DNA from: a virus
IMG/VR virus record: IMGVR_UViG_3300044617_002200
Coordinates: 1 to 64,000 of that record
Strand: one strand, 5' to 3'
DNA length: 64,000 bases
A program made the translations under genes and the position numbers. Shown in pieces: positions 127 through 35,809 of this stretch (the stretch's first letter is position 1; every line of letters begins with the position of its first letter). The notes beneath the pieces were generated by a model. It did no database searches, was not told the origin of the DNA, and was given only the letters and a program-made list of their open reading frames with translations.

Positions 127-1970
127 CTACTAGAAGACGAAAATATGACATTTTCGAAACTTATAAAAACGTTACCGGCGCTAAATGAAGAGCCACCTGT
201 AGAAGACGAGCCGCTTGTCGAAGACGAACTACTAGAAGACGAAAATATGACATTTTCGAAACTTATAAAAAGATTACCGGCGCTAAATGAAGAGCTGGCA
301 AATGAAGAACTACTACTAGAAGAAATATAAGACGAACTACTAGAAGAAATATAAGACGAACTACTAGAAAAATTAACCCCTGTATTATTATCTGAATAAT
401 ATATAGAATTCTTATCAGAACCAATAAACATTCTGTTACCGCTCCAAGAAATATTTATAGATTTAGGATAAATAACTTTATTATTGTTTCTTATAGAGGA
501 AATATACCAATCTTCTCCATAATTATTGCTATAATAATAATTACCACTAATAATACCAGATTCTGCTAAGAAAATATTTTTACCGTCGTTAGATATAGAA
601 ACATCTACCCAATGCTTTGGTGAAAGTAAATTTTGATCTACATTTATATTTAAATAATTTAAATTCTTAAAAGAAGAAGAACTATTTGAAGTATACAAAA
701 GAGAATTTAAATTCGAATCTTCAAAAGTTAAACCCGCAAACCAATATTTTTTATCTTTTACGGTTTTAAATAAATCTCTGCTAGTACTGGTATTATTTAA
801 TATTAAAATATGTTTTTTTGTTTTATCTGTAAAATTAGTAACTCTTCCATCCCAGTATTCTATATTTAATAAAGTTGCTATTCTATCAATTCGGCATGCA
901 ATACCAGTAAATCTAGTGCCCGCAAAACACAACCCCACAATTTTATGAACACCATTAAAATTTGCTATTAAAACAGAGCCGCTATCTCCTCCAGAAATTG
1001 GATTTCTCGTTCCATCTCGATTTTTAAATTGAATACAATCGCCGAAATCTATTTTAAAAATCTGATCATTATAAAAATACGAAATAGTAAAAAATCCCGA
1101 AGTCCCCGTAATTTTCAAAGAACAATTTTTACCACCCTTGGCCCCAGTTGTTCGGCCAGAAGAATAAACCTCTCTGTCATAAAAAGATAAAGAATCTATT
1201 TCTTCAGAAGTAGCGAACGAGTAATAACGGCCTTCATAATTTAAGCCTAATTGTTGAAATGATTCATTTTTATCAACAATAATCTCTCCATTTTTATTTT
1301 TTTTATCTAGAGCAATAAGCCCACAGTCTACGTAATTTATTTTATCTAAACTATACGGAATAAATCTTTTAATAGTACCAATAGAATCATTCTCTAAATT
1401 TATAGGAGTACCTTCCGTCCATTGGATGATTTTTTTTTCTTTAGAATTATTCGGCAGATTATTTGTATCTGATGTATTTACAGAACAAAAAAAATCTTTC
1501 ATTAAAACATGATTATTTGTTAACCCTACCGCAGAGCCATCGTCTTTGTCCAAACAAACCATACCTAACGTACCTCTTGGTAGCATTCTAGATATTGGAT
1601 CATAATTATCTGTAAAATTAGCTACAACGATGCCTCCTTTAATAGGCCGGTGTCTCGATCTATGCTTTTTTATTTCTTGAGATATATTATATTCCCAATC
1701 ATAGCAAGCTAACGAAACAGGAGAATCTTCTTCTACTACGTCAGTTATATATCTAAGACCATCTATCCAGACTTCGGTTGGCAGTAATTCATCTTCTGGA
1801 ATATACTTTTTTATTTTTTTTACAGAAACCTTAAAGGTAATACATTCAACATTTGTAGAAATATTATTTTTTATTTTTTTGGAAAAAATTACCCCAGTAA
1901 CATAATCTGGAGTTTTTAAATACAAATCTTCTATTTTTCCTAAAAATAATTTTTTATCTCTTGATTGCAT
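1..1970 (-). CDS. Trypsin-like (S1/Nal1-like) serine protease with Asp-box segment and Ser-rich repeats; 3' end truncated by window edge
   Basis: Not in the ORF track. Hand translation from ATG at 1970: MQSRDKKLF...TDVVEE...HRPIKGG...GLTNNHV (His 1509-1511)...YVDCG (Asp 1326-1328)...SGGDSGS (Ser 981-983), all in one frame, then YYSNNYGEDW and (SSSTSG)n. Paralog of 2242..5355. Confidence 0.85.
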   Translation of the reverse strand, partial: MQSRDKKLFLGKIEDLYLKTPDYVTGVIFSKKIKNNISTNVECITFKVSVKKIKKYIPEDELLPTEVWIDGLRYITDVVEEDSPVSLACYDWEYNISQEIKKHRSRHRPIKGGIVVANFTDNYDPISRMLPRGTLGMVCLDKDDGSAVGLTNNHVLMKDFFCSVNTSDTNNLPNNSKEKKIIQWTEGTPINLENDSIGTIKRFIPYSLDKINYVDCGLIALDKKNKNGEIIVDKNESFQQLGLNYEGRYYSFATSEEIDSLSFYDREVYSSGRTTGAKGGKNCSLKITGTSGFFTISYFYNDQIFKIDFGDCIQFKNRDGTRNPISGGDSGSVLIANFNGVHKIVGLCFAGTRFTGIACRIDRIATLLNIEYWDGRVTNFTDKTKKHILILNNTSTSRDLFKTVKDKKYWFAGLTFEDSNLNSLLYTSNSSSSFKNLNYLNINVDQNLLSPKHWVDVSISNDGKNIFLAESGIISGNYYYSNNYGEDWYISSIRNNNKVIYPKSINISWSGNRMFIGSDKNSIYYSDNNTGVNFSSSSSYISSSSSSYISSSSSSSFASSSFSAGNLFISFENVIFSSSSSSSSTSGSSSTGGSSFSAGNVFISFENVIFSSSSSSSSTSGSSSTSGSSSTSGSSSTSGSSSTSGSSSTSGSSSTS
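109..295. repeat. ~85-bp direct duplication with 102-bp period (SSFSAGNxFISFENVIFSSSS)
   Basis: 109-193 and 211-295 are near-identical. Confidence 0.9.
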
Positions 1971-2241: not shown

Positions 2242-5200
2242 TTACAAATATATTGTATTAGAGTCTTGATTTAATTTTAATATATCAAAGTTATCTATTA
2301 ACTCCTTTAAATTAAAAGAATTTGGAGAATATGGCGGCGGTTGCCATCCTGGAGGAGCGGTAGTCCCACCACCCTCTCCTAAGCAGCAACTATAAACAAC
2401 TTCATTACATTCATTCAATATTCTTACCCAAGTAACGCCTAAATGCGGGTTCGTATTTCCAGGCGAAGGAACTATAGAAATTGAAAACGATAGAGGTATT
2501 CCTGTATTAGAACCAGTATTAACTCCAGAAAAACCAAATAGAATAAAATTATCATCACTAGTTATAATTCTAGAACTATATCTATCATATTGACCATTAT
2601 ACGGGAATGGTCCTGGTCCATTATCTCTTGTTCCGGCATTATTCAACATCCCACTTAACACAGTATATCCACTGGGAGATAACTCTGTTTTCATTTTAAT
2701 GTCAAAGTCAGCTCTATTGCAAACGTGACCACCACCACAAGGATTATCTACCCCAACATTATCTCCACCAGGACCTTGACCCGAACCACTTGTAAAGATT
2801 AAGAAAGATCCAGATGCGTCATACCAACCGCTAATTAAATCATTCGGACCGCAAGGAACTGTTGGACCACCACCGCCTCCACCTCCAAGAGATTGCACAA
2901 CAATAGTTAATGTCCAAACTTCTTGTATGCCACCTCCATTTCCAGGACCCCCTCCACCATAAGTACCAGTAAATACAATTTTTGTTGTATAAGTACCAGG
3001 TGTTGTTGGCGTTCCAACAACTCTAGCAATGACAGAGTTATTAAGTCCAGCCACTGCTTCGTTGTTTATTGTAACTCCCGGACATACGTTTGGATCTTCT
3101 ATACAAACTGGTCCACTTGGAGGACAAAGTCCGCATGTTTTCAAAATAGCTCCGTTCGATATCGCTAAATTTTCAATAGCATATATTTTTTTTGTATAAT
3201 AATTAATACCCATTCTTCCTGCGGAAGAGTCTCTCGGCTCACAGCATCCGCCAGGATTAATTGCACAACTAATAGCACTAGTTAATGATACTTCTTCATT
3301 TTTATTTTTTAATTCAAATTGAGAATTATCATTTATAAGTTCAGAGACAGCTTCTTTAGATAGAAAAAATTCATTTCCATTAATTGATAAAGGATAATTT
3401 TTGCCAGATTTTGATCTAGCATATATAAAACAACGTTCTCCATCGTCGATTTTTATTGATGAAGTAGGATCTGGCTGAGGCACGATATGAAAGAAAAACC
3501 CACTACCACCGCTACCTATTGATCCAGATAATCCACTTTTTAAAATTGCTGTAGAAGGATTATAGCCAGCTGGAAGTGGAGCTTCTTCAAAAAATAACCA
3601 TTGCTTATTTGGTGTATGTCCAGGACCAGACTCATAAGTTAATTTAAAATCTATCGAATCAGGGCCTGGATTTATAATTCCACTTTCTAAAGAAATTCTG
3701 CAAGGAAAAGGCGGTTCATTAATAAATACAGATTCCGCATGAAAGGTATTAAATTCTAAAAGACCGTCTCCTACAAAACATGGAGGAAGTATTCTTTCGG
3801 GCGGATAGCAAACTGCATCGCTAGGATCACCCTGGTTATGCACATAAATAGTCTCCACTTTATAACCCACCAATCCCTGACCAACGACAGGAGTACAAAA
3901 AGGGTTGTCTCCAGAACATGCTAATCTGTTATTTATATTATCCCAATATTCCTGAGAACCAGTTGGGTATATATTATTATTAGCAGACCCGATACCCGCT
4001 TGATAAAAAGTAACACCATTGAAATCAAAATAATCACCTTTAAAATCTTTTGGAGCCACAACAATAGTTCCTTTTTTCATTGTGTCTACACCTAAAGGTC
4101 TACCATCCCATTGGCTAATATTCAAAGCTTTTTGGACATTATCAATTCTACAGGCATACCCTATAGCACGAGTTGAACTAATCGTACCAGCAAAAATCAA
4201 CCCGACTACTTTAAAGACAGAACCAAATTTTGCTAATAGAAAAGAACCTGAATCTCCTCCAGCAACTGCCATTCCTTGGCCATCTGCATAGTCTACCTCT
4301 ATAAGATCAGAATAATAAAGATCTACTGTTGAACCTTGTGATTGAACTTTTAAAGGACCAATACTAACAGTAACTCCAACTCTAGTTATTTTTAAACCAC
4401 AAGACTCGTTTTTAGGACCTGTTCTTGCTCCAGCACTGATAGCCACTGCATTCAAACAACTATTAATTTCTTGAGTTGTTGCAAATGGCACATTAGTAAC
4501 ATTGGCTGGTAAAATACCGAGTTGAAGATTAGATACTCCGCTCGTTAATAAAGAACTACTACCTAAGGTACATATAGCGGCATCCACAGTATTCATCACA
4601 TAACAAGTTGGAGTACTGGCGGCTGAAGGAGTATATTTTTTGGGACGACCGATAACCGCTGTTCCAGTTGTAACGACACTATTAGTTGAATCTTGAAGAA
4701 CAACTTGATCATAACCGCTAATAAAAGTTCCATTACTTGCCCATACATTCCCCTGTATAGTCCATCTTTGAACAGCAACGTTATCGTATATATTGTATAT
4801 TTCTTTAGCGAGGCTTCTATTGTGAGCGTAAGTATAATCTTTCACTATTACGTGAGCATTTGTTAACCCAACAACAGTGTTTGTATCATTATCTACGACT
4901 AAACCTCCCAAAGTACCTCCAAACCTATTAAATATTTGGTTTTGATTCGTTCCTCCGTTGCCGTCCAAGAAAGCGTTAGTATACATGTTCAAGACATGAA
5001 TACCACCTATCAAAGGCCTATGTGCCCTTCTATGTTCTGCTACGTTAAAAGGAGTAGGAGTAGCATCAAAATTATTGCAAGTAACTAAAAATTCGGCAAA
5101 CCCTCTTTCTACCACATCAGTTTTAAGCTTTTGTCCTTGTAAATAAACATATTCTGGAATTAAATCTCTGTCATCTATAACACTTAAGGGTCTTTTTTTA

Positions 5201-5355
5201 TGAACAAAATAAGTTAAACTCAATTCGTTCGTTTCGACCCCACTAACAATTTTATTACCAATACCAAATCCGTGAATATTAGGAGATGTTTCACGCATCA
5301 ACCCTGCGAACTCTTCGGTTAAACTTTCTCTGTCGTTTAATAAACTTATCTCCAT
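2242..5355 (-). CDS. Multidomain trypsin-like (S1/Nal1-like) serine protease with Cys/Pro/Gly-rich and Ig-like C-terminal modules
   Basis: Triad motifs GLTNAHV, TVDAA, GGDSGS; VVGLIFAG; GTPTTPGTY resembles a putative Ig repeat. Confidence 0.85.
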   Translation of the reverse strand: MEISLLNDRESLTEEFAGLMRETSPNIHGFGIGNKIVSGVETNELSLTYFVHKKRPLSVIDDRDLIPEYVYLQGQKLKTDVVERGFAEFLVTCNNFDATPTPFNVAEHRRAHRPLIGGIHVLNMYTNAFLDGNGGTNQNQIFNRFGGTLGGLVVDNDTNTVVGLTNAHVIVKDYTYAHNRSLAKEIYNIYDNVAVQRWTIQGNVWASNGTFISGYDQVVLQDSTNSVVTTGTAVIGRPKKYTPSAASTPTCYVMNTVDAAICTLGSSSLLTSGVSNLQLGILPANVTNVPFATTQEINSCLNAVAISAGARTGPKNESCGLKITRVGVTVSIGPLKVQSQGSTVDLYYSDLIEVDYADGQGMAVAGGDSGSFLLAKFGSVFKVVGLIFAGTISSTRAIGYACRIDNVQKALNISQWDGRPLGVDTMKKGTIVVAPKDFKGDYFDFNGVTFYQAGIGSANNNIYPTGSQEYWDNINNRLACSGDNPFCTPVVGQGLVGYKVETIYVHNQGDPSDAVCYPPERILPPCFVGDGLLEFNTFHAESVFINEPPFPCRISLESGIINPGPDSIDFKLTYESGPGHTPNKQWLFFEEAPLPAGYNPSTAILKSGLSGSIGSGGSGFFFHIVPQPDPTSSIKIDDGERCFIYARSKSGKNYPLSINGNEFFLSKEAVSELINDNSQFELKNKNEEVSLTSAISCAINPGGCCEPRDSSAGRMGINYYTKKIYAIENLAISNGAILKTCGLCPPSGPVCIEDPNVCPGVTINNEAVAGLNNSVIARVVGTPTTPGTYTTKIVFTGTYGGGGPGNGGGIQEVWTLTIVVQSLGGGGGGGPTVPCGPNDLISGWYDASGSFLIFTSGSGQGPGGDNVGVDNPCGGGHVCNRADFDIKMKTELSPSGYTVLSGMLNNAGTRDNGPGPFPYNGQYDRYSSRIITSDDNFILFGFSGVNTGSNTGIPLSFSISIVPSPGNTNPHLGVTWVRILNECNEVVYSCCLGEGGGTTAPPGWQPPPYSPNSFNLKELIDNFDILKLNQDSNTIYL

Positions 5356-16293: not shown

Positions 16294-19200
16294 TTAAATT
16301 CTAGCTAAAGATGGAGGTACTTTTTTTCCTAAAGCTCTTTTTACATTATTTCCTATTTGATCATTTATCTCTGGAAGCATAGATAAAATAACCTCTCTTG
16401 GGTCTTGTTGAGCCGAAGTTATATTTAAATTTACAGGAGCATTTATATCCGCTTTTACATTAGAAGTCATGCCAGCAGCAAAATTAGGAACAAAATTACT
16501 CGCAGCACCAGTAAGCTTTTCTATAGCCGAATTTAAACTTTCTAACATAATTGAAATATTATTATTAGGAATATTATTTTCGGATAGACTATCAAAAGCG
16601 CTTACAATATTATTTAATCCAGAATCTAAATTAGAAAAATTCGGGACTCTTTTTTCAAAATTCATACCTGACATTTTTAAATTTTCTCCAGCATGGTCTC
16701 TAAAAGCTTGGGATAAAGAATTTTGCCCTTGTAATTTATTAAAGACTCCTAATCCAAGTGGATTTGTCGCACTTTTTAATAAACCAGAACTCCCTACTCT
16801 AACAGAATTCAATGCTTCACTGGGAGAAGCACCCATAGAAACCAAGCTAGCAACTTCTCTTTGAATTGAATCATTAAGAGGATTTTTTTCAAAAAAGTTA
16901 GGAATAAAACCTTTTGAGTAAGAATCAGTTTTTTTATGCGAGTTGTATACAGTTCTTAATTTCGAATACTGCTGTCTAGAATACATTGTTTTGTATTCCA
17001 TTAATTTTTTAGCAAGAGCCATTTTTTCTTCAGATGTTTTTGCGTTTTTTATAGCATCTTCATAAGCAGTATTTAATTCTAAAACTTCTGCTTTCGCCGT
17101 TTCATCAGAATAAGCGTTTTCTTTTTGAGTAGATTCTATTACCGATCTAACAGGGTCAGCATTTGAAGAAGTATCGCTTTTAGTATTTAATAAAGACGCA
17201 ACCTTTTCAGAAGGCTTTCTTTCCAAAACTGGCGCTTTTGACTCCTCTTCTTTTGGTAAAGGATTCGTTGCGTCTGGATCTAAAATCCCTGTAGATTTTT
17301 GACGAACCCTATCAGAAATTACCTGTGTAGCATACAAACCTTCTGTTAACCAACGCTTACCAGCAGGAGTTAATTTATACGAACTATCTTCCGAACCATA
17401 CTTTTCTAAAGTTTGTTTTAATGATTTAATTTTATTTCTAGCTTCGCTATAGCTTTTGTCCTGAAATTCACTTTTTTTAATTTCAGTTAAAGAATCTTGT
17501 ATATTTCTAATAAAAGAGGCCATTTCATCTTCAGAGAATTGTTCTGATGGGTAAAGTCCCTCTACAACAGATTTTGGTCTAGAAGTTTTTGTATCTATTT
17601 CTCCAACAGCTTTTTGCTTCATTCTCGATTGAGACTCTTTTATTTCGTTTAAAACCGTAGAAGAAAAATCGGCTATTTCTTTTGGTATTTGAGTACCACT
17701 ATACTCCTCAAGTTGTTTTTTAGCTAATTCATACTGTTTTCTTGCTTCCCCAACTTTTCCAGCATCTTCCGATCTGTTTGCATTTTCTATTATACGATAA
17801 ATATTTTCTGGTATTGTTGGTTTAGTTTTTTTAGTATCACTGCTAGAGCTAGGTTGAGAAACCGTATTTTTAGCAGAGGATACCGGTTTAGAAGCAGGAG
17901 TGGGAATAACAGAAGCAGGAGCGGGTTGGTTTTGATTTGCTGTAATTATCGCAGGCATTGCTGCATTATTATTGACAACTGACTCAGGATTTTCAGTAGT
18001 AGAAGAAGCAATATCTCTAACCGTTAAACCAGTATCTATAGCTGCAGAAATACCAGTTCCAATGCCAGGAAAACTTCCTGCTACTCCAGAAACAACTTCT
18101 AAACCTGCGCCTGCGAAATCACCCTCCATAGCACGCGAAATACCGAAACCAATACCAGCACCAATACCAATTATAGGTATCTTTTTTAATATGGCTTTTC
18201 CCAATCCTTTGCCCCCAGCTTTTCCAGCTGTTTTTGCTGCAGATTTTGTAGTAGCTTCAGCTGCTTCTTCTACAACTTTGCTAGTAGCTTTCGACGCCGC
18301 TTTATTTTGGAAAGCTTGCTCTACAGTTTTTTTTGCTAAATCATCTGAGTAACCTTTTGATTTCAACCAGTTATATAATTGGCTTTTTTGAGAAATACCT
18401 CCCGTTCTTCCTCTAGAACCTACTTTTCCAGGAGTGGTTGTATTTTTTTTATTTCTATCTAAAAACTCCAAAGCTTCTCTTTCTGCTTTTTTTATAGGGT
18501 CTTCTGGTTTAGGGGTCGGTACTTTTTTAGTCTCAGGTTTGGGTTTTTCCGCATCTGCGATACCCTTTTTAACGCTATCTGATTCAAGTTGTGATATTGG
18601 TTTATCAATAGGGGCAATTTTTTCTGGATTTATTTTTGCTAATTTTTTTCTAGCGACTGCCTGCTCTTCCGGAGTACCAAAATCAACCATTCTTTTTAAT
18701 TTATCTGCCTTAGTGTCCATTGACTGCTCTAAAGCAAGATTCTTATTTACTTTAGATACACCCTCTGCTTCTTGTATAGCTTTTTTGTATATTTCAGCTG
18801 GAGTGCTATTTGTTCCAGCCTGTTTATCCATCTCAAAAATCCCTTCTAAAAATGCGGCGGAGTCTTCTAATGTATTAAAAGTTCCTGACTCAACTAATTG
18901 ACGAATTGTTTTTTCAAATCCAGGATCTTTAGGAATCCTAGCAAAATTAGGTATAAGCCCTTTCGCAAAATTAAACGCTTTTTGCATATCCCTTGTAAGG
19001 ACTGCTGTTTTTCTCGTTCCTCCAAAATTTTTAATTAATTTCTCACCACTATTAATCATGGCGGGTTTTCCGTTAAGGTCATTTAAAAAAACAGGATAAT
19101 CTGAAGGCAATGCCCCACCAATGCCTTTATTAATAGCAGAAGTTTCATTTTTAAATGCAGGTATATACCCTGACGCTTTGTTTTTAACTGGGCCTTTAGG

Positions 19201-22200
19201 TGGAGAATATGGTTGTAAATTATTTTCAGATCCTGCTCTTTGAGACATTATTTGAGCTAAAGAAATAATAGATTTATCTATATTTTGAAGAACTCCAAAT
19301 TGCTGAGTCTGTATTTGAGTTTGAAGTGACGCTTGATTTACTAGCGGATCATCAGATATAGATAAACCGGATTTTATTGCTTCTGCAACTTGTAAATTTA
19401 TTTTTTCTATTTGACCGATAGAGTTTTTATAAATTTTACTGAAAATTGAGTTAAAAACAGAGCTATCTATTTGACCAGTAGCTTGTCCCATTTGTAAAGC
19501 GGCGATCTCTTTGGGATTGAATTGTTTTAAAGCATCAACAAAAGATCTATACTCTTGTCTAACATCATCTGGTAAAATAGCTCTTCCAGTATTCTGTCTA
19601 GAAATAGCATCATCCCGCAAGGCTTTTTCAAATTCTTTTATTTTATTTGAAATATCTTGAGTCAATCCCGCCATGGCTTTTTGGTAAGAATCAGATTGTG
19701 GATCTACCTCATATAGGCCTCCCGATAATGTTTGCAATGTCTTTATAAGAGATAAATAATTTCTTCCCAAATCAGGAATATCTGCAACTCTAGCATTTAC
19801 AGATTCTTTATTGTTATATCTAAAAGCACTTTTAGATTCTATGCCTTTGATTTCATTTACAAATGAATCTAAAGATTTTAAAGGGGTTATTTCATTACCA
19901 AATTCGTCTTTTTGAGGAGATAAAAAACTTTCAGCACCTCCAAAAATACCAGTCGCCGATTGAAGTGTTTTTAAAACTAAATTTTGAGTAGCTCTATCAG
20001 CTAAACTTTTGTTAGCAAGTTTTTCTTGTTGGTTAATGCTGATTAATTCATTATTTGTTTTTTCAGCCAATATTTCAATATTTGTTAAAATTGAGTTTAC
20101 ATTTTCTACACCAGCAGAAATCAAATAAGTTTTTAAACCTCTAAGTAAATTTTGAGTATCTATTTGTTCTCCTAAAGCTTTTCCAAGCAAAGTGTTAGAA
20201 TTTTTAAAACTTGATTCTAATTTCAAGTTCTGACTTTCTAACTGAAGACGGTTAGTACTAATTTGTTTGGGAGATAAATTTTCACCCGAAGCCTGGTCTA
20301 TTATTTTTTTTCTAACATCTTCAAAAGCAGACCCTAATAAAGTTGAGACTTGATTTTGAAAATCAAGATTTCTATTTTGAATAGAATTAATTCTATCATT
20401 GCTATTTTTTAATATATCTTCCGCAATCTGGTATTGAGTTGCAATTCTAGAACCCTCGCCAGTTATTTGAGAAGCAGCCTCTCTTTTATTAGAAAAATTC
20501 TGTTCAATTATTCTATTTTGACTAAATTGTTGTAAAGCTAATTTAGATTGTTCTATACTAGAAATATAAGCTTGTGTTATTTCAATATTTTTTCGAATAG
20601 AATCTTTTGTTTTTTCTAATAATTGATTTTCAAAAGCCCTGCTCTTAGATAAATTTCGAATAGAATCATCATAATTTTTTTGAGCTGTAATAGAATCTTC
20701 AAAAGATTTTTTAGAATTATCTAATCCAGCAGCAAAAGTTTTTACGATTACAGATAAAGAGTCGAAAGGTATTGTTGCTAATTCGTTTTTTAAACTTCTA
20801 ACTTCTTCTGTGTCTGGCAATCCAGAAGCAAAAGCTTCCGCGAAATCTTGCGATGAATTAATATTCGAACTAAATCCTTGCCCACCACCAACAGCGTTAA
20901 TCTTACCAAGACCAGACCTCTCATCTAATCCTTGAAAAAATATTGATTGCAATGTTTTATTTAATTTTTCTAATTCTTTAGAATCATTTTCTAATAATCC
21001 TGATCCGAATAAACCGCCACTCACATTTCTAATATTAGCGTTTGATCTCTCCTGCCCAAGTATTTTTCCTACATCCTGTAAATTAGAAGTAAATTCAGTT
21101 ACAACTTGTTTATTTTGAAGTATTTTAGCTATTTTTTCTCTAGCTTCAGATAAACTTTTGGAACTTAGAATTGATTTTTTTTCTTCTTCTGAAACACCAT
21201 TCAAAGATTCATTTAAAGCTTTTCTAGCTTTATTTACAGTATCTAAATCAGCGCCATCTTCAAGAAGTTTTTGGTAATTTTCAGATGCAGTTAAAAATTT
21301 AGAAGAACTGTCGGAAAAATTCTGAAGACTTTCTCTTGATTTTTCTGCTGCTGAAGAGAGTTCTGGAAAATTAGAATTTAATTCATCTAATAATGGGCCT
21401 AGCGATAATAAACCACCAGCCACACCGCCTACAGCGGCTCCGATAGGTCCTCCTACTAAAAATCCCGCTCCTGCAAAAGATGCGGTTTGCCCGAGAGCAC
21501 TTACAGCTGCACCAGTTCTTCTATCTTCTGGATTATTTCTACCTATAGAATTAGCAATTGTTTCAGCTATAATAGGAGCTGAAGTTAAACCTAATGCGCC
21601 ACCAGAAGACAAGCCAGCTTTAATTCCAGCTCCAGAAAAAATTCTTTTAAAAGTCCCTGCCACACCGGAAGACCCGGCTATTTTTTCTAACTTCCCTAAA
21701 GAAGTTTCTGATTTAGATATTTGAGCTTCAAGTTTTCTGAATTGTTTACTATTCTTATCTAGAGAGGATAACTCTTCTTTTCTTATCGAAATAGAAGACC
21801 TTATTTTGTCGATTTCAGAATTAAACTCAGAATTAAAACTTCTAAATCCAATCGAAAGTAAAGCTAACTGAGTTAAAACAGCACCTATAGATCCAAAATC
21901 AGCCTGCTCTGCAAAGTTAGGAATATATCCAGTAGACTTGCTTTTTACAGCTTTATTTTCTTTTGATTTAGTCCCCTCGTCTCTACTATTAAAAACGCCC
22001 AAACCAAAAGGGTTAGATTTTGATACTAAATCTTTATTATTAGCTACATAAATTTTATTATTTGGTAATCCTGACTCATTAGTCTCTCTAATTATAGCAT
22101 CTTTTAAGGCATTTGAAAAATTTGGAATAAAACCTTTAGAGCGCGACTTCATTTTTGGAACTCTAAAAATATTCTCTTTCAATCCTTTGCGTATAACATC

Positions 22201-24681
22201 AGGAGCTAAAGACTCGGAAATTTTTGCTTCATAGTCCCCAGGTGTATTATTAAATAATGACCTTAATTCTTGGTTTGGGTTAATAAAATCTATAACAGCA
22301 CTAGCCCCGCCCTCTCTAGATGATTGAGCCATAACGGAATTAGTTCCTTTTGTGACAGCTGTTTCAAATACAGTTCCAGCTATACTAGGAAGCGAACCAA
22401 GATTTGATAATTCCGAAACATCTTTAATTCTTGCTAGCGAAGATTTATTTCCAAAAAAACTTACATAGCGATTTGTATAATCAACAATATAATCGCCAAT
22501 TCCTCTAGCAAGATCCTGATCTTCTGGCTCGATAGCTTCTTTTGGATTAAATCCACTTGAATTAAAACGCGCTTTATATATTTGCCCTCTTGCCCCAAAT
22601 TGCCCGTCTTTATCTTTCCAAGAAGCCTCTATTTTCTTATAAGAATTCGTTTGTTTACCATAGATTAGACTTAATCTATCTGTAGAGCCCAAGTCGATTG
22701 GAGGCGAGGCAACTTTATTATCCTGAGTTTTACCAATTTGATATTTTAACTGACTTAATCTTTGTTTTTCTTGATCAGTGAGGGTTTTCTTTCTTTCTAA
22801 ATTATAAAGTTCAGTTTTTGGATTTACAGCAAAATTAGGTATATAACCCAAAGCCATTGAGAGTCCCTTTTGCATTTCGCGAGTAAGAATTGCCGTTTCT
22901 TTGCTTCCTCCAAAATTTTCTACAAGCCTCTCTCCTGTATTTATTACAGTTGGTTCTCCATTTATATTGAATGGGCCAATTGGTTTATCACTAGGCTTTG
23001 CGCCCCCAACTCTTTTCTGTATATCTTTTTGTTCTTTTTTAAAAGCAGGTATATAACCATCCGCCCTAGTTTTAGGAGTCGGTGCGTTAGGAATTCCCTC
23101 TGAAACTCTTACGCCTCTATTAAATAATTGAGAAGCAATTTTAGCCGTTAATATATCCTGTTTTTGTAATTCAGTTGTTTGTGCTCTTAAACTAGCCAAT
23201 AGTTGTTCAGTTGCCTTAGCTACACCCTGAGTACCTTGCTGCATTAACTGAAGCAACTGTGGATTTTGACTAAGAATACTCGTTATACTTTTTTGTAAAT
23301 CAGCTTGTTGTTTCGCAGCATTATTTAGACCCAGAAGTTCCTTAGAACTGCCTATTGCAAATTTAGAAAAATCCTTAAATAATTTAGCAAGAACACCTCC
23401 TATTAAAGCAATTCCTGGACCAGCTAATATTTTACCTATACCGTCTAAAATACCAGTACCTAGTTTAGCGCCGAATCCTTCACTATCTACATTGTTTAAA
23501 TTTTCTAATATCAAATTACCCCCGCCTACCACTCTTTCAAACGATGGTCCAATTACTCTTTCCCCTGCTGCAGCAGCTAATTGCACAGCATTCTCTCTTA
23601 AAGCATTCAATTGAGCTGCGTAGGTTTTATTTAATTCTTCATTTCTTCTTATAGCTTGATCAGTTGTCGATTCAGCAACTTTTAAAGCATTATTATATAT
23701 AGAAAATTCTTTACCTAAATCTGCAAGAGCAGACTTCAAAATATTTATTTGGAACACTCCGCCAACTTTTTCAGCAACTTCCGCCTGCTGAAGCGTACCT
23801 AACTTATCATAAACCGACCCTAAGTCTTGGAGTAATGCTATTGTTGATTTCAATTGACCTGTTCCATCTGTAGTCGAAATCCCCAATCCTTCTAAAAGGT
23901 CTACTACTTTTGTTCTTTGTAATCTTGTAAAAATAGTTTTAAAGGAGTTACCAATAACAGCTCCACCTCTAGCCGTAGTTTGTTGAGCGGCTGTAACAAT
24001 TGCGATTAATTCATTTAAACTAACTCCTGATTGAGCAGCGCTGCTACCTACACGGCTAATAGCGTCAGCTAAATCAGCTGAACTCACCGCGAAAGCTGCG
24101 TCAACATTTGCGAATTTATTGACTATTTCAGTTGCAGTTACGGCTTCTGAGGCGAAAGAATTTACTGCTGCTGTTAAAGCCTCGACGCTTTTAGCAGCAT
24201 CTAGACCGCTCAATCTAGACAATATTAAAGCTTCATTTGTTCTTTTTAAAGTTTCTGATATCCCTAAACCCTGTCTTGAAAATTCCGTAGCAGCTTTTGC
24301 TACAGCTTCAAAAGATTGACCCGTATTTTTAGCAATATTAAATAAATCTGCTCCAAATTTATTTAATTCAGTAGATGATGCATTTAAAATTACATTTATA
24401 TCTTGTAAAGATTTTTGAACTTCAATAGTAGATGAGACTAAAGATTGAAAAGCTTTCTCAATACCAAAAATAATACCCGCACTTGCGCCGAAGGCTATAA
24501 CTCTTGCGTTAGAAGCATCTAATGATTTGTTAAATTCATTAATTTTTCCAGTTATACGACCCAAAGGCTGCTCGCCTTTAGTTTTTAAGTCAATTTCAAA
24601 AACCTTATTAACGCTTTTTCGTATATCACGATCTAAGCGTTTTGTATTCCCACCAATATCTAAATCAATTGAAGCTGGCAT
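16294..24681 (-). CDS. Tail tape measure protein (TP901-type core) with internal cassettes
   Basis: 2795 aa; N-terminal core AKAATEFSRQG...AVSSADLADAISRVGS...GAVIGNSFKTIFTRL; follows tail tube and chaperones. Confidence 0.92.
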   Translation of the reverse strand: MPASIDLDIGGNTKRLDRDIRKSVNKVFEIDLKTKGEQPLGRITGKINEFNKSLDASNARVIAFGASAGIIFGIEKAFQSLVSSTIEVQKSLQDINVILNASSTELNKFGADLFNIAKNTGQSFEAVAKAATEFSRQGLGISETLKRTNEALILSRLSGLDAAKSVEALTAAVNSFASEAVTATEIVNKFANVDAAFAVSSADLADAISRVGSSAAQSGVSLNELIAIVTAAQQTTARGGAVIGNSFKTIFTRLQRTKVVDLLEGLGISTTDGTGQLKSTIALLQDLGSVYDKLGTLQQAEVAEKVGGVFQINILKSALADLGKEFSIYNNALKVAESTTDQAIRRNEELNKTYAAQLNALRENAVQLAAAAGERVIGPSFERVVGGGNLILENLNNVDSEGFGAKLGTGILDGIGKILAGPGIALIGGVLAKLFKDFSKFAIGSSKELLGLNNAAKQQADLQKSITSILSQNPQLLQLMQQGTQGVAKATEQLLASLRAQTTELQKQDILTAKIASQLFNRGVRVSEGIPNAPTPKTRADGYIPAFKKEQKDIQKRVGGAKPSDKPIGPFNINGEPTVINTGERLVENFGGSKETAILTREMQKGLSMALGYIPNFAVNPKTELYNLERKKTLTDQEKQRLSQLKYQIGKTQDNKVASPPIDLGSTDRLSLIYGKQTNSYKKIEASWKDKDGQFGARGQIYKARFNSSGFNPKEAIEPEDQDLARGIGDYIVDYTNRYVSFFGNKSSLARIKDVSELSNLGSLPSIAGTVFETAVTKGTNSVMAQSSREGGASAVIDFINPNQELRSLFNNTPGDYEAKISESLAPDVIRKGLKENIFRVPKMKSRSKGFIPNFSNALKDAIIRETNESGLPNNKIYVANNKDLVSKSNPFGLGVFNSRDEGTKSKENKAVKSKSTGYIPNFAEQADFGSIGAVLTQLALLSIGFRSFNSEFNSEIDKIRSSISIRKEELSSLDKNSKQFRKLEAQISKSETSLGKLEKIAGSSGVAGTFKRIFSGAGIKAGLSSGGALGLTSAPIIAETIANSIGRNNPEDRRTGAAVSALGQTASFAGAGFLVGGPIGAAVGGVAGGLLSLGPLLDELNSNFPELSSAAEKSRESLQNFSDSSSKFLTASENYQKLLEDGADLDTVNKARKALNESLNGVSEEEKKSILSSKSLSEAREKIAKILQNKQVVTEFTSNLQDVGKILGQERSNANIRNVSGGLFGSGLLENDSKELEKLNKTLQSIFFQGLDERSGLGKINAVGGGQGFSSNINSSQDFAEAFASGLPDTEEVRSLKNELATIPFDSLSVIVKTFAAGLDNSKKSFEDSITAQKNYDDSIRNLSKSRAFENQLLEKTKDSIRKNIEITQAYISSIEQSKLALQQFSQNRIIEQNFSNKREAASQITGEGSRIATQYQIAEDILKNSNDRINSIQNRNLDFQNQVSTLLGSAFEDVRKKIIDQASGENLSPKQISTNRLQLESQNLKLESSFKNSNTLLGKALGEQIDTQNLLRGLKTYLISAGVENVNSILTNIEILAEKTNNELISINQQEKLANKSLADRATQNLVLKTLQSATGIFGGAESFLSPQKDEFGNEITPLKSLDSFVNEIKGIESKSAFRYNNKESVNARVADIPDLGRNYLSLIKTLQTLSGGLYEVDPQSDSYQKAMAGLTQDISNKIKEFEKALRDDAISRQNTGRAILPDDVRQEYRSFVDALKQFNPKEIAALQMGQATGQIDSSVFNSIFSKIYKNSIGQIEKINLQVAEAIKSGLSISDDPLVNQASLQTQIQTQQFGVLQNIDKSIISLAQIMSQRAGSENNLQPYSPPKGPVKNKASGYIPAFKNETSAINKGIGGALPSDYPVFLNDLNGKPAMINSGEKLIKNFGGTRKTAVLTRDMQKAFNFAKGLIPNFARIPKDPGFEKTIRQLVESGTFNTLEDSAAFLEGIFEMDKQAGTNSTPAEIYKKAIQEAEGVSKVNKNLALEQSMDTKADKLKRMVDFGTPEEQAVARKKLAKINPEKIAPIDKPISQLESDSVKKGIADAEKPKPETKKVPTPKPEDPIKKAEREALEFLDRNKKNTTTPGKVGSRGRTGGISQKSQLYNWLKSKGYSDDLAKKTVEQAFQNKAASKATSKVVEEAAEATTKSAAKTAGKAGGKGLGKAILKKIPIIGIGAGIGFGISRAMEGDFAGAGLEVVSGVAGSFPGIGTGISAAIDTGLTVRDIASSTTENPESVVNNNAAMPAIITANQNQPAPASVIPTPASKPVSSAKNTVSQPSSSSDTKKTKPTIPENIYRIIENANRSEDAGKVGEARKQYELAKKQLEEYSGTQIPKEIADFSSTVLNEIKESQSRMKQKAVGEIDTKTSRPKSVVEGLYPSEQFSEDEMASFIRNIQDSLTEIKKSEFQDKSYSEARNKIKSLKQTLEKYGSEDSSYKLTPAGKRWLTEGLYATQVISDRVRQKSTGILDPDATNPLPKEEESKAPVLERKPSEKVASLLNTKSDTSSNADPVRSVIESTQKENAYSDETAKAEVLELNTAYEDAIKNAKTSEEKMALAKKLMEYKTMYSRQQYSKLRTVYNSHKKTDSYSKGFIPNFFEKNPLNDSIQREVASLVSMGASPSEALNSVRVGSSGLLKSATNPLGLGVFNKLQGQNSLSQAFRDHAGENLKMSGMNFEKRVPNFSNLDSGLNNIVSAFDSLSENNIPNNNISIMLESLNSAIEKLTGAASNFVPNFAAGMTSNVKADINAPVNLNITSAQQDPREVILSMLPEINDQIGNNVKRALGKKVPPSLARI

Positions 24682-24709: not shown

Positions 24710-25741
24710 TCAATTATTTTCTCGAACATTCAAATAATCAGACTTTTCTATAATCCCGCCGCTTTCCTTAGCCATTTCTAATAAACTTTTACCTTTTATT
24801 TTTTCAACTTTCACACCCATTTCTTTTAAGTCTTGTTGTGAAGCTCCAACGTAACTACCAACAGCATTTTTAGTATTAGTTTTATTAGATTTTTTTATAA
24901 ATTTATTTCCTTTACTAGGGGAGGAATTATAATTATCAAACCATTCTACTAATTTATCAGAATCATTTAAAATATCGTCGCTTATTTGTTTTCCAGTTTC
25001 TGACTGCATTTTGATAAAATTCTTAAACATTTTCCCATACATTAACAAATCTATCTGATATTTTGTACATTTAGAAGCTGCAATACCCCAAAAATTTAAA
25101 GCATCTTCGCTTAAAAACATTAAATTTTGAAAAAACCCACTAGCCCCGACTTTCTTTAAAGATTGGCTATTGAATATATCAGTATAATTAAAATAAGCAT
25201 TACGTATTTCTTCAGCGTCATTATCTGTTAAATCATAATAATCATTTTTATCTTTAAAATATTTATTCGTAAATTTAGAATCTTCAAATGTATATTCTAT
25301 CAATAATTCTTCTGTTAATTTGTTATTTGCATATTCTTCTAAACAAAAACCTATAAGCTCTCTTCTTTGTTTATTATAAGATATTAAAATAGAGTTATTT
25401 TTTTCTATCTGCTCATCTATAGATTTTTTTTGAGAAGGATAAAGAAGTTTATCTTTTGTAATTTTTAAGTTATTAATTGTTTTAATCAATAAATCTATTT
25501 TAGATTCATACTCTAAACTCCACCAGCTATTTGAAATAGCCTCTTCTATTTTTTCTTTTTCAGAAACTAAGCCCTTTTTAGACCCTTCTTTTAAAAAGAA
25601 TTCGTAGTTTGAATAATTCTTAAAATGTTCTGCTACGGTAGGGTGTTTGAAAAAAATTTTATTTTTGTTTTTTAATAAAACACCAGTAAAGCCATCGCAT
25701 ATATTGCTATACAGTATGCCTAATTCATAGCTTTTATCCAC
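24710..25741 (-). CDS. Probable tail assembly chaperone
   Basis: Helical, charged; immediately upstream of the tape measure; GTG start. Confidence 0.5.
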   Translation of the reverse strand: MDKSYELGILYSNICDGFTGVLLKNKNKIFFKHPTVAEHFKNYSNYEFFLKEGSKKGLVSEKEKIEEAISNSWWSLEYESKIDLLIKTINNLKITKDKLLYPSQKKSIDEQIEKNNSILISYNKQRRELIGFCLEEYANNKLTEELLIEYTFEDSKFTNKYFKDKNDYYDLTDNDAEEIRNAYFNYTDIFNSQSLKKVGASGFFQNLMFLSEDALNFWGIAASKCTKYQIDLLMYGKMFKNFIKMQSETGKQISDDILNDSDKLVEWFDNYNSSPSKGNKFIKKSNKTNTKNAVGSYVGASQQDLKEMGVKVEKIKGKSLLEMAKESGGIIEKSDYLNVRENN

Positions 25742-25747
25742 ATTTTA

Positions 25748-26557
25748 TCAACTAACTTGTATTTTTTCTATTACATTATCTGCTTCGTTAGGAGGAGTCG
25801 GTTGACTTGAAGAAGCACTTTCTATGTTTTTATTCTCTTCAGTTTTATCTATGATGTTTTCTTCTTCGTTTTCACTAATATAATTTTTGTCAAATAAAGA
25901 GAAATCCTCTTTAGTCTCGGCCCTACCCAAAAACCACAAAGTTATTAAATAAGTGAGTCTTCTTATTATTCCTAATAAAAACTCGTTTTTTTCAGAGTCA
26001 TCTTCTAACGAATCATATTTTAATAATTTTTCATTAAATTCATTACCTTCGAATAAAGCAACAAAATTTCCGTTTTCATCTTGACGATAAGAAAGGAACA
26101 TAACCCACCATAATATGGTTCTATTCCGAGCTTTTGCTTCAGCAGTATTTTCAAAAATTGCTATTTGAGAAGCCTCAAAAGCCTGTATATCTTTTTTTAC
26201 AGAATCAAGTTCTTCTATTAAAGAATCTACCCTGCTTTTTTCGACATCTGTTCTTTCTGATTCGCCCTTTATAAGAATAGATTGTAAATCAAAAGATTTA
26301 TCTCTAAACTTTATAAGTAAACTTCCATATAACTCCCTGTCTTGCTCGCTAATGCTACCACCGCCATTTGAAAGAATGGTGTTCCATGCGGCTTTAGGCA
26401 AAACTCCGGCTTTTGCGAATCTAGATGTTTCGGTAGCATAAAACAACTCCCCGTCTTCTCTTAATTTACGATTAGGTTTTAATATAGCGAACTTCTTAGC
26501 ACCGCCGCTATTTTTTGTTTCAAACTCATACATCCAAGAATTTTTATGTTTTTCCAT
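25748..26557 (-). CDS. Probable tail assembly chaperone
   Basis: Helical/coiled-coil with acidic tail; between tail tube and tape measure. Confidence 0.5.
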   Translation of the reverse strand: MEKHKNSWMYEFETKNSGGAKKFAILKPNRKLREDGELFYATETSRFAKAGVLPKAAWNTILSNGGGSISEQDRELYGSLLIKFRDKSFDLQSILIKGESERTDVEKSRVDSLIEELDSVKKDIQAFEASQIAIFENTAEAKARNRTILWWVMFLSYRQDENGNFVALFEGNEFNEKLLKYDSLEDDSEKNEFLLGIIRRLTYLITLWFLGRAETKEDFSLFDKNYISENEEENIIDKTEENKNIESASSSQPTPPNEADNVIEKIQVS

Positions 26558-26886: not shown

Positions 26887-27966
26887 TTATAATACGCTTC
26901 CAGAAATAAAGACGCCTCTAGCAGTATCTTGAGGACCACCGATTTGGACTTCGTAAGTTGCACTCATTGTTGCGTTACTTCCGATTGCTGAACTAAAATT
27001 CTGAGAAACAAGTTTTGCTTGTTTGAAAAGATAAGCTAAAGAAGCATCGCCTGTTCCATTACAGTTCGGTTTCTTTAGAATTATGTTAAAATCATAATTT
27101 GGATTCGAGCATAATAAATCGGCCAAATTAGCATTATCTAAATCTCCTACTTCGGCATTAACTTCTAAAGTAGCAGTAACAGGAAAATCTATTTCTCTAG
27201 AGAAAGCGAATCTACTACCTAATTTTTGCAGAGGAGTACGACTTAATTCGAAAGATAAAGTAAAATCTTGAACTTTTAAATTTGTTTCATCATAACCAAA
27301 TGCACTATTATTGGGCAGGCTGAAAACAATATCTCCAGGTTGAAGCGCTGTAGCTTGAGATGCATTGTCATCTTCTTTTGCCGATGGTAAAGAAAAGAAA
27401 ACGTTATTTAATGGTTGTCCAGTAGCAGGATCAACAGCAGGACTTGCGCCACTTTCCCCAATAGAAGAATAAACTCTAATATTTAAGCCTTCTATATCAA
27501 CACTCGCTGTAGGTATATCTCCAACTGCAGCAGTAACGCTATAAGAAGTTAAGAAACCATTTCCAATAGCGATAACACCAGTATTGGGTAAGTTATAACC
27601 ATTCGCATCATTTCCTTCGTCAGCAATTAAAAGATAATAATTTTTTTCATCAGTTGCTTTTTGTAAAAGTTGCGAAATACAAGACTGTACGCCACTTGTA
27701 TTCAAGCCCAAATACTTTTCGTTACTTCCATCTGTAACATAATACGATAAACTAGCATTAACAGTTGGCGCTTCAGTTTCGATACGGTCAATAGCAGCAA
27801 GATTACCGAACTGATTTACGTCTGTAAAATTACGACTAAAGTCTTCATCGAAAGATTGAACTCTAGTCAATTGTTTAATTGATCCGTCAATAGTTTGATC
27901 TATTTCAGGCTTGACTTGACTAGCATAGACAGCCAAAACGTTATATATAACTCTATTTCTGCTCAT
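26887..27966 (-). CDS. Major tail tube protein
   Basis: Two beta-rich tube-like halves (LTRVQSF..., VQDFTLSFELSRTPL...LGS); followed by a strong terminator; no sheath gene nearby. Confidence 0.75.
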   Translation of the reverse strand: MSRNRVIYNVLAVYASQVKPEIDQTIDGSIKQLTRVQSFDEDFSRNFTDVNQFGNLAAIDRIETEAPTVNASLSYYVTDGSNEKYLGLNTSGVQSCISQLLQKATDEKNYYLLIADEGNDANGYNLPNTGVIAIGNGFLTSYSVTAAVGDIPTASVDIEGLNIRVYSSIGESGASPAVDPATGQPLNNVFFSLPSAKEDDNASQATALQPGDIVFSLPNNSAFGYDETNLKVQDFTLSFELSRTPLQKLGSRFAFSREIDFPVTATLEVNAEVGDLDNANLADLLCSNPNYDFNIILKKPNCNGTGDASLAYLFKQAKLVSQNFSSAIGSNATMSATYEVQIGGPQDTARGVFISGSVL

Positions 27967-34869: not shown

Positions 34870-35343
34870 CTATAAAAGTGCTGCTTGAAAATGCATCCAA
34901 TCATAATTTCTAGCTCTACCCAAGCTAACCCAGTTTTCTGATTCTACTATTTTCCAGAAATCTCTATACTCTGCTTTAGCAAAACTTGCTTGTTTATTGG
35001 TCATTTTCAAAGTATTTCTATCTGGATCTAAATCCACTGCAGCGCCCCAAGAATGAATAGACCAACTAGACCCACCCCTCATTTTTCTAACATTTAAACA
35101 CCCGCCAAAAACATCAAGTCTTAGTCGTTGTATTTCTTTCAAACCATATGTTTTGAGTGTTTTTTCAAAAATTGTATGTAAAGATTCCGAAACTTTTTTA
35201 TTACAAGTTAATCTTTTTATCACAGTGTTAGTATCCCATGCAAGCTTTAAAGAATACGGTAAATCTAATCTAGATTGGTTTTCGCCAACTGGACCATAAT
35301 AATCTAGCATAGATTGTAAATTTTGTTTAGGCCAATTATTCAT
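34870..35343 (-). CDS. Endolysin, peptidase M15 family (L-Ala-D-Glu peptidase-like)
   Basis: R...SIHSWGAAVD...DWMHFQ zinc motif; likely start MNNWPKQ at 35343 overlapping the holin stop. Confidence 0.85.
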   Translation of the reverse strand: MNNWPKQNLQSMLDYYGPVGENQSRLDLPYSLKLAWDTNTVIKRLTCNKKVSESLHTIFEKTLKTYGLKEIQRLRLDVFGGCLNVRKMRGGSSWSIHSWGAAVDLDPDRNTLKMTNKQASFAKAEYRDFWKIVESENWVSLGRARNYDWMHFQAALL

Positions 35344-35809
35344 TATCTTTTTGTATCCACTCCAAAGGGGCATAAGAAGGATCATTCTTAAATTTTTCAG
35401 CGTAATTTATTATAACGTTCTCATTTATTTCTTCACTTGTATATTTATGATCGCCTTCTAAATTTACACTGCTATTAGATTGCATTTTATAATCTAAAAC
35501 CGTTTGAACACCTAAATAGCTAGCAATTATTACGGCTAATATTTTTATAGTTTCTGTAAATATAGAAACAAAAGGCAATGTCAAATTAGGGAAACTAGCA
35601 GTTAAAAACAAAACGACAATACTAGCTAAATAAAAAATTGCCAATATCACAACAGAGCAAAAAACAACATAAAACTTTTTTGAAGTAAAAAAATTAATTT
35701 TACTAAAATCTTCCTTATATTTTATGGGAGTATTTATTGGCGATTTATTAAACTGCAACATAGAAACGAGGGAAGATGCTATATTAGCTATGGAGCGTTG
35801 TAAGTACAT
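35336..35809 (-). CDS. Putative holin (two transmembrane segments)
   Basis: SKKFYVVFCSVVILAIF... and ILAVIIASYLGVQ; directly upstream of the endolysin; start taken at ATG 35809. Confidence 0.65.
   Translation of the reverse strand: MYLQRSIANIASSLVSMLQFNKSPINTPIKYKEDFSKINFFTSKKFYVVFCSVVILAIFYLASIVVLFLTASFPNLTLPFVSIFTETIKILAVIIASYLGVQTVLDYKMQSNSSVNLEGDHKYTSEEINENVIINYAEKFKNDPSYAPLEWIQKDNE

Follow-up and report, generated by a model that had tools for sequence, protein, structure and literature searches.

The stretch of DNA analysed here (the window) comprises positions 1 to 64,000 of the IMG/VR virus record IMGVR_UViG_3300044617_002200, which holds 83,405 bases at ~30% G+C and has a CheckV completeness of 55%. 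Its source is an uncultured, low-GC, long-tailed phage (siphophage), probably aquatic, and the window encodes a large terminase subunit, an M15 endolysin, PhoH, a PhoD-like phosphatase, HSP20 and an ERCC4 nuclease. Our subject is the tape measure protein (TMP) of this phage. The gene, P0001, is a single open frame of 8,388 bases on the minus strand (16294-24681) that encodes 2795 amino acids (aa). An earlier note on this DNA had taken the product for a tape measure, and profile searches agree: PF10145 (PhageMin_Tail) matches aa 117-308 (E = 3e-26; 93 bits against a cutoff of 33.2), and phrog_4211, annotated as 'tail length tape measure protein', matches aa 50-506 (E = 6.7e-53). Searched against Pfam at E<=0.1, the protein matched only PF10145 and, weakly, TMP_3, with no recognisable enzyme domain.

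Nine short motifs of the type IPNF punctuate the chain (all coordinates in this and the next paragraph lie on the minus strand). The N-terminal TMP domain, aa 1 to ~530 (23092-24681), is kept in 97-110 of 110 relatives and, by analogy with T5-like phages as described in passages of PMC10713586, would be the head-proximal end. Motif 1 (GYIPAF, aa 542-547; 23041-23058), with Ala instead of Asn, marks its junction with module A (aa 548-611; 22849-23040), which was recognized by a self-match to aa 1828-1918 and by the hidden Markov model (HMM) modA at aa 549-610. Motif 2 (GYIPNF, aa 612-617; 22831-22848) divides A from a domain that we call X (aa 618-849; 22135-22830; HMM modX at 631-849) and that the earlier note had called cargo 1. 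At the other end of X, motif 3 (GFIPNF, aa 850-855; 22117-22134) leads into module B (aa 856-917; 21931-22116), predicted to be a small alpha/beta unit and carrying the signature NP.GLGV.N.RDE, and motif 4 (GYIPNF, aa 918-923; 21913-21930) ends the array.

Hydrophobic and glycine-rich segments follow at aa 926-951 and 1058-1102 (21376-21906), located by a hydropathy scan and by a conserved Gly-rich block in the family consensus. The middle part (aa 1103-1837; 19171-21375), which we assume to be the helical, length-setting part, is common to only 7-19 of 110 relatives, and its cluster, c16, is shared with the relative P0005. The motif scan then finds motif 5 (GYIPAF, aa 1838-1843; 19153-19170) ahead of module A', a second copy of A (aa 1844-1907; 18961-19152) supported by self-match and HMM, and motif 6 (GLIPNF, aa 1908-1913; 18943-18960) behind it. 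Next comes the 'cargo 2' of the earlier note, 677 residues (aa 1914-2590; 16912-18942) made up of Lys/Pro- and Ser-rich low-complexity sequence, a Gly-rich hydrophobic segment (~aa 2115-2235; 17977-18339) and a helical-looking tail. Motif 7 (GFIPNF, aa 2591-2596; 16894-16911) precedes module B', the second copy of B (aa 2597-2676; 16654-16893; HMM modB at 2600-2673). The scan closes with motif 8 (KRVPNF, aa 2677-2682; 16636-16653) and motif 9 (NFVPNF, aa 2729-2734; 16480-16497), the latter 61 aa before the C-terminus; both lack the G-[FY] prefix and are degenerate copies. Counted by their I/V residue, with the first base of its codon in brackets, the nine motifs stand at aa 544 (23052), 614 (22842), 852 (22128), 920 (21924), 1840 (19164), 1910 (18954), 2593 (16905), 2679 (16647) and 2731 (16491).

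This density of motifs is far above chance. The composition of the protein predicts 0.076 occurrences of [IV]P[NA]F, against nine observed, and among 20,000 shuffles of the protein 18,491 contained no match, 1,450 contained one, 59 contained two and none contained three or more. Modules A and B are each duplicated: aa 531-622 align with aa 1828-1918 at ~54% identity (E = 2e-25; 54% across the 74 aa of 531-604 and 1828-1900), and aa 843-898 align with aa 2584-2648 at 45% identity over 65 aa (E = 4e-9). The nine motifs, the two copies each of A and B, and the division of the chain by the motifs, with A and B framing the region, thus stand as the earlier note had described them. The motif is also confined to this gene. 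A looser pattern, [FYHL][IV]P[NSA]F, matched nine times in window frames open for at least 100 aa, eight of them in the TMP and the ninth as LIPSF in the open reading frame (ORF) 62284-63381. In the whole 83,405-base record, all four strict matches at the DNA level lay in the TMP gene.

We then looked at relatives chosen by homology rather than by motif. A search with residues 520-2795 gave 35 PF10145 TMPs of 1645-3724 aa, 34 of which contain at least three motifs. Aligned together (alignment A1), the 35 proteins have a mean column identity of 15%, and G542, G612, P615, G850, P853, F855, G918, P921, N922 and F923 are invariant. IMG/VR holds at least 568 relatives, since 568 of 600 pattern-matched stretches encode one. 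Among the 80 IMG/VR loci kept for analysis (L001-L080), the longest ORF carries at least two motifs in 78; the exceptions are L059, which is cut by the contig end, and L021, where the longest ORF is the wrong one. We gathered 330 motif instances with the pattern [ILVM]P[NAS]F, in which P and F are fixed by construction. Of these, 314 have G two residues before I/V, 282 have F or Y directly before it, 317 have N at the N/A/S position, and 251 have A or S after the F. More distant members relax the F/Y position, and the form G-x-[IV]-P-N-[FY]-[AS] characterises a large TMP clade of uncultured aquatic siphophages. The flanks of the motif are rich in K, S, A and G.

Six of six Firmicute-type PF10145 TMPs used as controls have no motif, and the TMP of phage Staley (2249 aa) has a single weak RIPAF. 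Among cultured phages, tblastn with the whole TMP matched 137 phage records, and in the 30 of them that were listed it reached only the N-terminal domain; a typical cassette (from L024) had no tblastn match at all. Relatives are carried by metagenome-assembled genome (MAG) contigs assigned to many phyla and by no isolates, and the motif strings were not found in the literature searched. It is extremely unlikely that the pattern reflects nothing more than the internal duplication usual in a long, repetitive TMP and a motif that recurs through chance or descent. A and A', and B and B', are true duplicates, and one duplication could explain four to six of the nine motifs; but the motif is kept at four junctions in ~100 TMPs that have no duplication, it flanks unrelated modules and it is missing from the control TMPs.

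The collection also contains some unusual members. On MAG-binned contigs, L102:12721-29958 (+) is a TMP-like stop-to-stop frame of 5746 aa with 14 motifs, and L104 and L107 hold such frames of 4202 and 5001 aa with 10 motifs each; no Pfam family was found in these three arrays. At L021:9983-16101, with GFIPNY as both its third and its fourth motif, a stop interrupts the TMP frame 30 aa past the fourth motif, after a lysine-rich stretch (...EKKKL*), and the sequence goes on in another frame; this interruption is a frameshift or a sequencing error and does not lie at a motif. Searches for short or stand-alone cassette proteins gave 26 matches, which are best seen as fragments because most come from contigs of <4 kb.

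Across the clade, the N-terminal TMP domain is followed by an ordered array consisting of A, the core domain X, 0-6 accessory modules and B, and then by Gly-rich membrane segments and a long remainder that we assume to be helical. HMMs of the clustered modules, run on 107 TMPs of at least 1500 aa, detected A in 105, X in 101 and B in 100. Exactly one A, one X and one B are present in 88 of the 107, in the order A-X-B in 87 of these 88. Seventy of the 88 arrays are minimal, with 211-308 aa from the end of A to the start of B, and the remaining 18 have 438-1433 aa there, mostly extra modules. Ninety-four TMPs have a single A and a single B; in these, the motif stands at the start of A in 81, at the end of A in 90, at the start of B in 92 and at the end of B in 90. 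In most of the 13 first junctions that lack it, G-[FY]-[IL]-P is still there and N-F is gone. The window TMP combines a minimal A-X-B array with a second A'...B' frame near the C-terminus, a rare arrangement: a second A occurs in only 5 of the 107 TMPs, three of which also have a second B.

The units between motifs behave as cassettes. Cutting 112 unique TMPs at the motif yielded 397 inter-motif segments, which fall into 26 clusters and 33 singletons, and the accessory clusters appear in varied orders and combinations. In eight aligned pairs of relatives, we examined insertions and deletions (indels) of at least 40 aa. Four of the five in-array indels extend from one motif to just short of the following one: 198 aa (P0002/P0003), 292 aa (P0017/P0018), 76 aa (P0025/P0026) and 110 aa (P0003/L008). 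The remaining one, of 62 aa (P0020/P0023), falls in a slot where both proteins carry different modules, and indels outside the arrays are not motif-bounded. Modules seem to move between positions as well, because the first A of the window resembles the A' type. The window A' falls together with the A' copies of P0005 and L006, at 56-66% identity. The window first A is 50% identical to its own A', compared with 17-20% between the first A and A' of P0005 and L006, and it shares the IPAF spelling of the A' motif. The B of 69 of 110 relatives matches the window B'.

Selection on the motif acts on the peptide. Its synonymous codons follow the background of the TMP genes of the window and of L001-L080, with one exception: 62% of 277 copies spell the Pro as CCT, a codon used for 33% of the other prolines of the same genes. 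The peptide is kept at sites whose synonymous positions vary about as the background does, and therefore selection is on amino acids, not on DNA. We accordingly rejected a DNA-level constraint, leaving aside the CCT bias. Codon bias in this AT-rich clade nevertheless makes most motif copies read GGW TTT ATT CCT AAT TTT, nearly identical DNA, and this raises the alternative that the motif is an evolutionary joint: a conserved hinge, without any specific biochemical partner, whose near-identical coding DNA lets modules recombine in frame. The motif-to-motif indels, the shuffled module orders, the uniform coding DNA and the A'-like first A of the window, which suggests conversion between positions, all suit a joint. 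We nonetheless consider it improbable as the full account, since synonymous sites vary as background while the peptide persists in proteins of ~15% mean column identity, and an invariant Pro, Asn and Phe would be superfluous in a simple hinge.

The contents of the two frames in the window differ from what had been proposed for them. The earlier note took the 230-aa cargo 1 for an interchangeable effector and named conservation on a par with A and B as the finding that would speak against this. X is in fact present in 101 of the 107 relatives, about as often as A and B, and is a conserved core domain, not an interchangeable effector. Alignments A2 and A3 show an invariant G..FE and a conserved D, (D/E)xK and K. 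Numbered along the segment 21862-23109 (-), the pattern E...D...(D/E)xK...K has E249 and K308 invariant and D274 and K294 conserved at >=90%, and its residues recall PD-(D/E)xK nucleases. Neither this nor another known fold is supported for X by the fold and profile searches. Two AlphaFold2 (AF2) models of the region, with a mean predicted local distance difference test score (pLDDT) of 65.7 and 66.5, had no Foldseek match in the PDB at E<=1e-3; the best VIA-align Z scores, 3.9 and 4.1, were to unrelated helical chains; and the best BFVD match had E 9.7e-3 and TM 0.09. A PDB profile search gave a single match at E 0.42, the ESM Atlas search a best score of 0.80 and no usable match, and Pfam, run on 34 members of alignment A2, no family in more than one member. 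Searching for stand-alone X proteins produced one match, probably a fragment.

Cargo 2 is unique, as the earlier note expected of a cargo, since none of 110 relatives matches aa 1951-2450. The expectation that it would be an effector domain fared less well: no Pfam family was found in aa 1914-2590 at E<=0.1, and the sequence is mostly low-complexity or helical around the Gly-rich hydrophobic segment. An exhaustive search with cargo 2 matched 1,922 library proteins at E<=1e-3, 749 of them at <=1e-10. Among the 150 matches listed, the best stretches mostly cover query residues ~170-440, commonly 200-320, which correspond to aa ~2115-2235 of the TMP; phrog_23178 and phrog_34252 match the same Gly-rich segment. 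Scanned with Pfam, 29 of these matches comprised three VanY/M15 proteins, one phage lysozyme, one PF10145 protein and a majority without any domain. The segment matched none of 111 family TMPs. Because it is widespread elsewhere and missing from the family TMPs, we conclude that the second A'...B' frame, which is the older one, encloses a foreign Gly-rich membrane segment; the enclosed sequence is probably membrane-active rather than an enzyme.

Enzyme-like units appear in the arrays of relatives. We ran Pfam on 20 arrays carrying extra motifs and found GNAT (PF00583) in four, always within the 177-179-aa cluster c7; L016 (29.4 bits) and L033 (25.9 bits) exceed the cutoff of 20.7, and L015 and L030 fall below it. 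HIGH_NTase1_ass was matched in L071 (31.8 bits against a cutoff of 26.7; cluster c12) and Glucosaminidase in L049 (L049/P0029; 65 bits), there in the C-terminal part, upstream of the last motif. HATPase_c was matched below cutoff, at 22-23 bits, in L076 and L078, within the 570-aa cluster c14. Ten of the 20 arrays have no Pfam family. Consensus sequences of the clusters contain RGxGIG in c7, the GHKL N, G1 and G2 boxes and HEAAH in c14, GVPGAGKST and TRGH in c12, and HExxH in c9. Such enzyme-like modules lie exactly between motifs. Searches of other arrays came back nearly empty, PHROGs giving a family in 0 of 15 and Pfam in 0 of 6 further arrays, and most modules have no Pfam or PHROG family.

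Two fragment proteins add to this inventory: P0054 has a P-loop module between two motifs, and P0052 a weak match to sigma-70 region 4 (22.3 bits, below cutoff). The c12 module (P0002 aa 1313-1799; also in P0003, L008, L033 and L071) is a motif-bounded unit of 485-662 aa, with a P-loop and a HIGH-type part, in the closest relatives of the window. It is presumably NadR-like and could bear on NAD metabolism. The idea of a cassette system, which the earlier note had drawn from the window alone, thus survives at the level of the family, where modules, some of them enzyme-like, are gained, lost and exchanged motif to motif; in the window itself, cargo 1 is conserved and cargo 2 has no enzyme domain.

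Together, these data show a linker motif that is under strong peptide-level selection, is confined to one virion protein and flanks every unit of a recombining array. Structure prediction places it in flexible sequence. In an AF2 model of the window A-X-B region built from 34 aligned sequences (the model with the mean pLDDT of 65.7), motifs 1, 2 and 4 and aa 850-854 of motif 3, all but its last residue, have pLDDT <50, with X and B at 70-90 (B at 73-83) and module A below 60 in the single-chain model. Because of this difference, the motifs look, in the model, like linear motifs in linkers. A complex prediction pairing A (segment residues 14-97) with B (322-403) scored 0.00 in two runs made with no controls, and speaks neither for nor against binding.

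We tentatively favour the reading that the motif is a site-specific processing signal separating the TMP rod from globular units. Its length and its large-then-small residue pattern resemble protease sites, the enzyme-like modules are hard to picture working while tethered to a rod of >2000 aa, and TMP processing has a precedent. In the T5-like phage DT57C, the TMP is cleaved and its C-terminal fragment stays in the tail tip; the N-terminus of the TMP touches the DNA and its C-terminus lies at the tip (passages of PMC10713586). Under this reading, a protease from the phage, the host or the TMP itself would cut at the motifs after tail assembly, or during or after ejection. The most natural guess is a chymotrypsin-like cut after the final Phe and before the small Ala or Ser. 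The length-setting rod would be separated from the globular units, and the units could be released singly. By analogy with DT57C, ejection would begin with the membrane-active C-terminal parts, and the array would come at the end, entering the cell immediately before the DNA. Exchange of modules would find in-frame joints in the uniform motif-coding DNA.

Several observations weigh against cleavage at the motif. Pfam found no peptidase family in the window TMP, and A, X and B have no peptidase signature and no match in Pfam, PHROGs, the PDB or BFVD. A dedicated protease would have a single substrate, because the motif is in no other gene of the record. Modules with HExxH belong to a minority of arrays (for example c9, with 6 inter-motif segments) and there are none in the window. 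No IMG/VR gene ends in GFIPNF-TAA: the gene-end scan covered the TAA stop and the GFIPNF spelling only, its 18 matches were all chance with upstream frames of <=63 aa, and split forms mimicking cleavage products were not found in it. Not every junction need be a site, because junction 1 is truncated to G-Y-I-P in 13 of 94 TMPs and reads IPAF in the window. Under the bacterial N-end rule, Phe at a new N-terminus would destabilise a released module. The low pLDDT of the motifs, moreover, may partly reflect shallow alignments of 33-34 rows.

The main rival, which we regard as possible though on the whole unlikely, is that the motif is never cut and serves docking or assembly. Copies would bind a repeated partner, keeping non-helical inserts in register, or unfolded, inside the tube, and the whole TMP would be ejected as one chain. 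Proposed partners are the lumen of the tail tube, the motif in other TMP chains, or the products of the two genes directly upstream of the TMP gene (24710-26557, minus strand; 343 aa and 269 aa), which occupy the position usual for tail assembly chaperones and were found by tblastn in 77 of 80 and 74 of 80 related loci. Conservation of the motif, its location in linkers and its restriction to TMPs fit docking as well as they fit processing, and a hydrophobic-Pro-Asn-aromatic pattern would suit a small hydrophobic clasp. No protease was recognised in the TMP or the window, and the first junctions that keep G-Y-I-P when N-F is lost suit a structural role better than a scissile site. Yet no structure or complex prediction backs any partner, the AF2 model leaves the motifs unstructured instead of packing them against A, X or B, and docking alone leaves it unexplained why a motif stands on each side of every module, whatever its fold. 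Docking also leaves open how a GNAT, GHKL or nucleotidyltransferase module could act while tethered to a rod of >2000 aa.

Processing could in principle dispense with a protease if the conserved Asn cyclised and the chain cleaved itself, as happens at the Asn-Ala and Asn-Phe sites of nodavirus and tetravirus capsids and at the NPTH site of FlhB/YscU. Asn in 317 of 330 instances, followed by Phe, and the lack of a protease gene in our searches suit this idea. We consider it very unlikely, though: Ala replaces Asn in window motifs 1 and 5 (aa 546 and 1842), close relatives have Ala or Ser at junction 1, Asn-Phe is lost in the 13 truncated first junctions, and the predicted disorder of the motif is at odds with the folded catalytic environment that Asn cyclisation requires.

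If the motif is indeed a processing signal, a virion protein of a tailed phage would here follow a polyprotein strategy, and early effectors would have a general way through a non-contractile tail. Carried furthest, the TMP could be a polyprotein injector, in which the heptapeptide G-[FY]-[IV]-P-N-F-[AS] would be a cleavage signal that frees programmable enzymes for host takeover or counter-defence just ahead of the DNA, and in which recombination at the motif would bring in new modules. This extended scenario we treat as speculative and doubtful. The candidate enzymes are the acetyltransferase, the GHKL ATPase, the NadR-like kinase/nucleotidyltransferase, which could restore NAD, the sigma-region-4-like module, and X as a possible nuclease.

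TMPs are usually seen as rulers that sometimes carry a cell-wall enzyme. Here, a fixed A...B 'socket' with a near-invariant linker motif is found in at least 568 contigs, and unrelated modules, some enzyme-like, enter it, leave it and change places inside it, which suggests the delivery of variable proteins through the tail. Annotated examples of domain-bearing TMPs include the lysin domain in the TMP of Bacillus phage Staley and the 'putative transglycosylase' YomI of SPbeta. Motifs in mycobacteriophage TMPs and the T5 protein pb2 are further cases. The present TMPs resemble these in their PF10145 N-terminal domain, great length, hydrophobic Gly-rich segments and possession of a non-rod domain in a tail-ejected protein, and the relative L049/P0029 even carries a glucosaminidase. 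They differ in that the inserts form an ordered, near-N-terminal A-X-...-B array bounded by motifs, with 0-6 accessory modules, some of which are not cell-wall-enzyme-like, and in that control PF10145 TMPs lack the motif.

A second likeness is to polyvalent proteins, giant proteins that are thought to enter the cell with the DNA and that join unrelated enzyme domains in many combinations (Iyer et al. 2017; passages of PMC5512222). Their authors propose processing into separate units by an embedded zincin-like peptidase (same passages), and GNAT is among the domains listed for them (passages of PMC7824862). The main text of PMC5512222 contains the string 'tape' 0 times and never mentions tape measures. 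Relatives of the window TMP, though not the window TMP itself, share with polyvalent proteins the possession of unrelated catalytic domains, here GNAT, HIGH-type nucleotidyltransferase and glucosaminidase. The repeated linker motif sets the present family apart, as does the window TMP, which has no enzyme or peptidase family match in Pfam; the HExxH motif, without a family match, is confined to c9 and c14 of some relatives.

Polymorphic toxins offer a third comparison, since VENN in CdiA and PxxxxDPxGL in Rhs are demarcation motifs (passages of PMC3150448). There, as here, a short peptide sharply borders constant and variable parts, identity breaks at the motif and cassettes are exchanged there. 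The toxin systems described in that source have one motif, one C-terminal toxin and an adjoining immunity gene, whereas the TMPs have up to 14 motif copies per chain, on both sides of internal modules. The motif-bearing protein is in this case a virion protein with no immunity partner in view, the small downstream genes not having been examined for one.

Viral polyproteins, finally, use protease sites of 6-7 residues, such as that of the potyvirus NIa (TEV) protease. Common to both is a conserved site of ~7 residues, with a large-then-small end, that recurs between unrelated domains of one product. The present case differs in being the structural ruler of a tailed phage, known from sequence alone, with no protease domain found in the TMP. 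A polyprotein strategy of such kind in a tailed-phage ruler was not found in the literature searched. The combination of features of domain-bearing TMPs, polyvalent proteins and demarcation motifs is likewise not found in print, supplements and subscription journals being outside the search. The motif is in any case a simple sequence handle for mining metagenomes for unknown phage effector domains, and even if it is uncut, an invariant linear motif found in a single virion protein points to a hitherto unknown interaction in assembly.

The gene order around the TMP fits a tail module, in which chaperone-position genes would precede it and distal tail genes would follow; none of the neighbours matched a Pfam or PHROG family. 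A putative tail tube protein is encoded at 26887-27966. Between the two upstream genes, which are large for tail assembly chaperones, lies a 6-base gap with no overlap, and Pfam and PHROG searches with both proteins gave no match. Farther downstream, two proteins at 3-1970 (-) (>655 aa) and 2242-5355 (-) (1037 aa) have N-terminal parts that match phrog_20754, annotated 'protease' (1e-18 and 9e-21). Neither has a Pfam family, and tblastn gave no match to them in the 80 related loci, which extend only a limited way downstream.

The rest of the window adds some observations on the phage itself. The M15-type endolysin at 34870-35385 (-) (phrog_17001, 7e-71; Peptidase_M15_4, 4e-7) lies within the structural gene block and not in a lysis cassette. 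Proteins of ~940 aa at 36652-39504 (-) and 55405-58206 (-), far apart from each other, each have a BppL_N match at the N-terminus (1.2e-8 and 2.2e-11) and may be alternative receptor-binding proteins outside the main tail module. No tRNA genes were found in the 64-kb window. Between 43350 and 49887 lies an auxiliary-type cluster typical of aquatic phages, which comprises the ERCC4 nuclease, a sigma-70 region 2-like protein, PhoH, HSP20 and the PhoD-like phosphatase.

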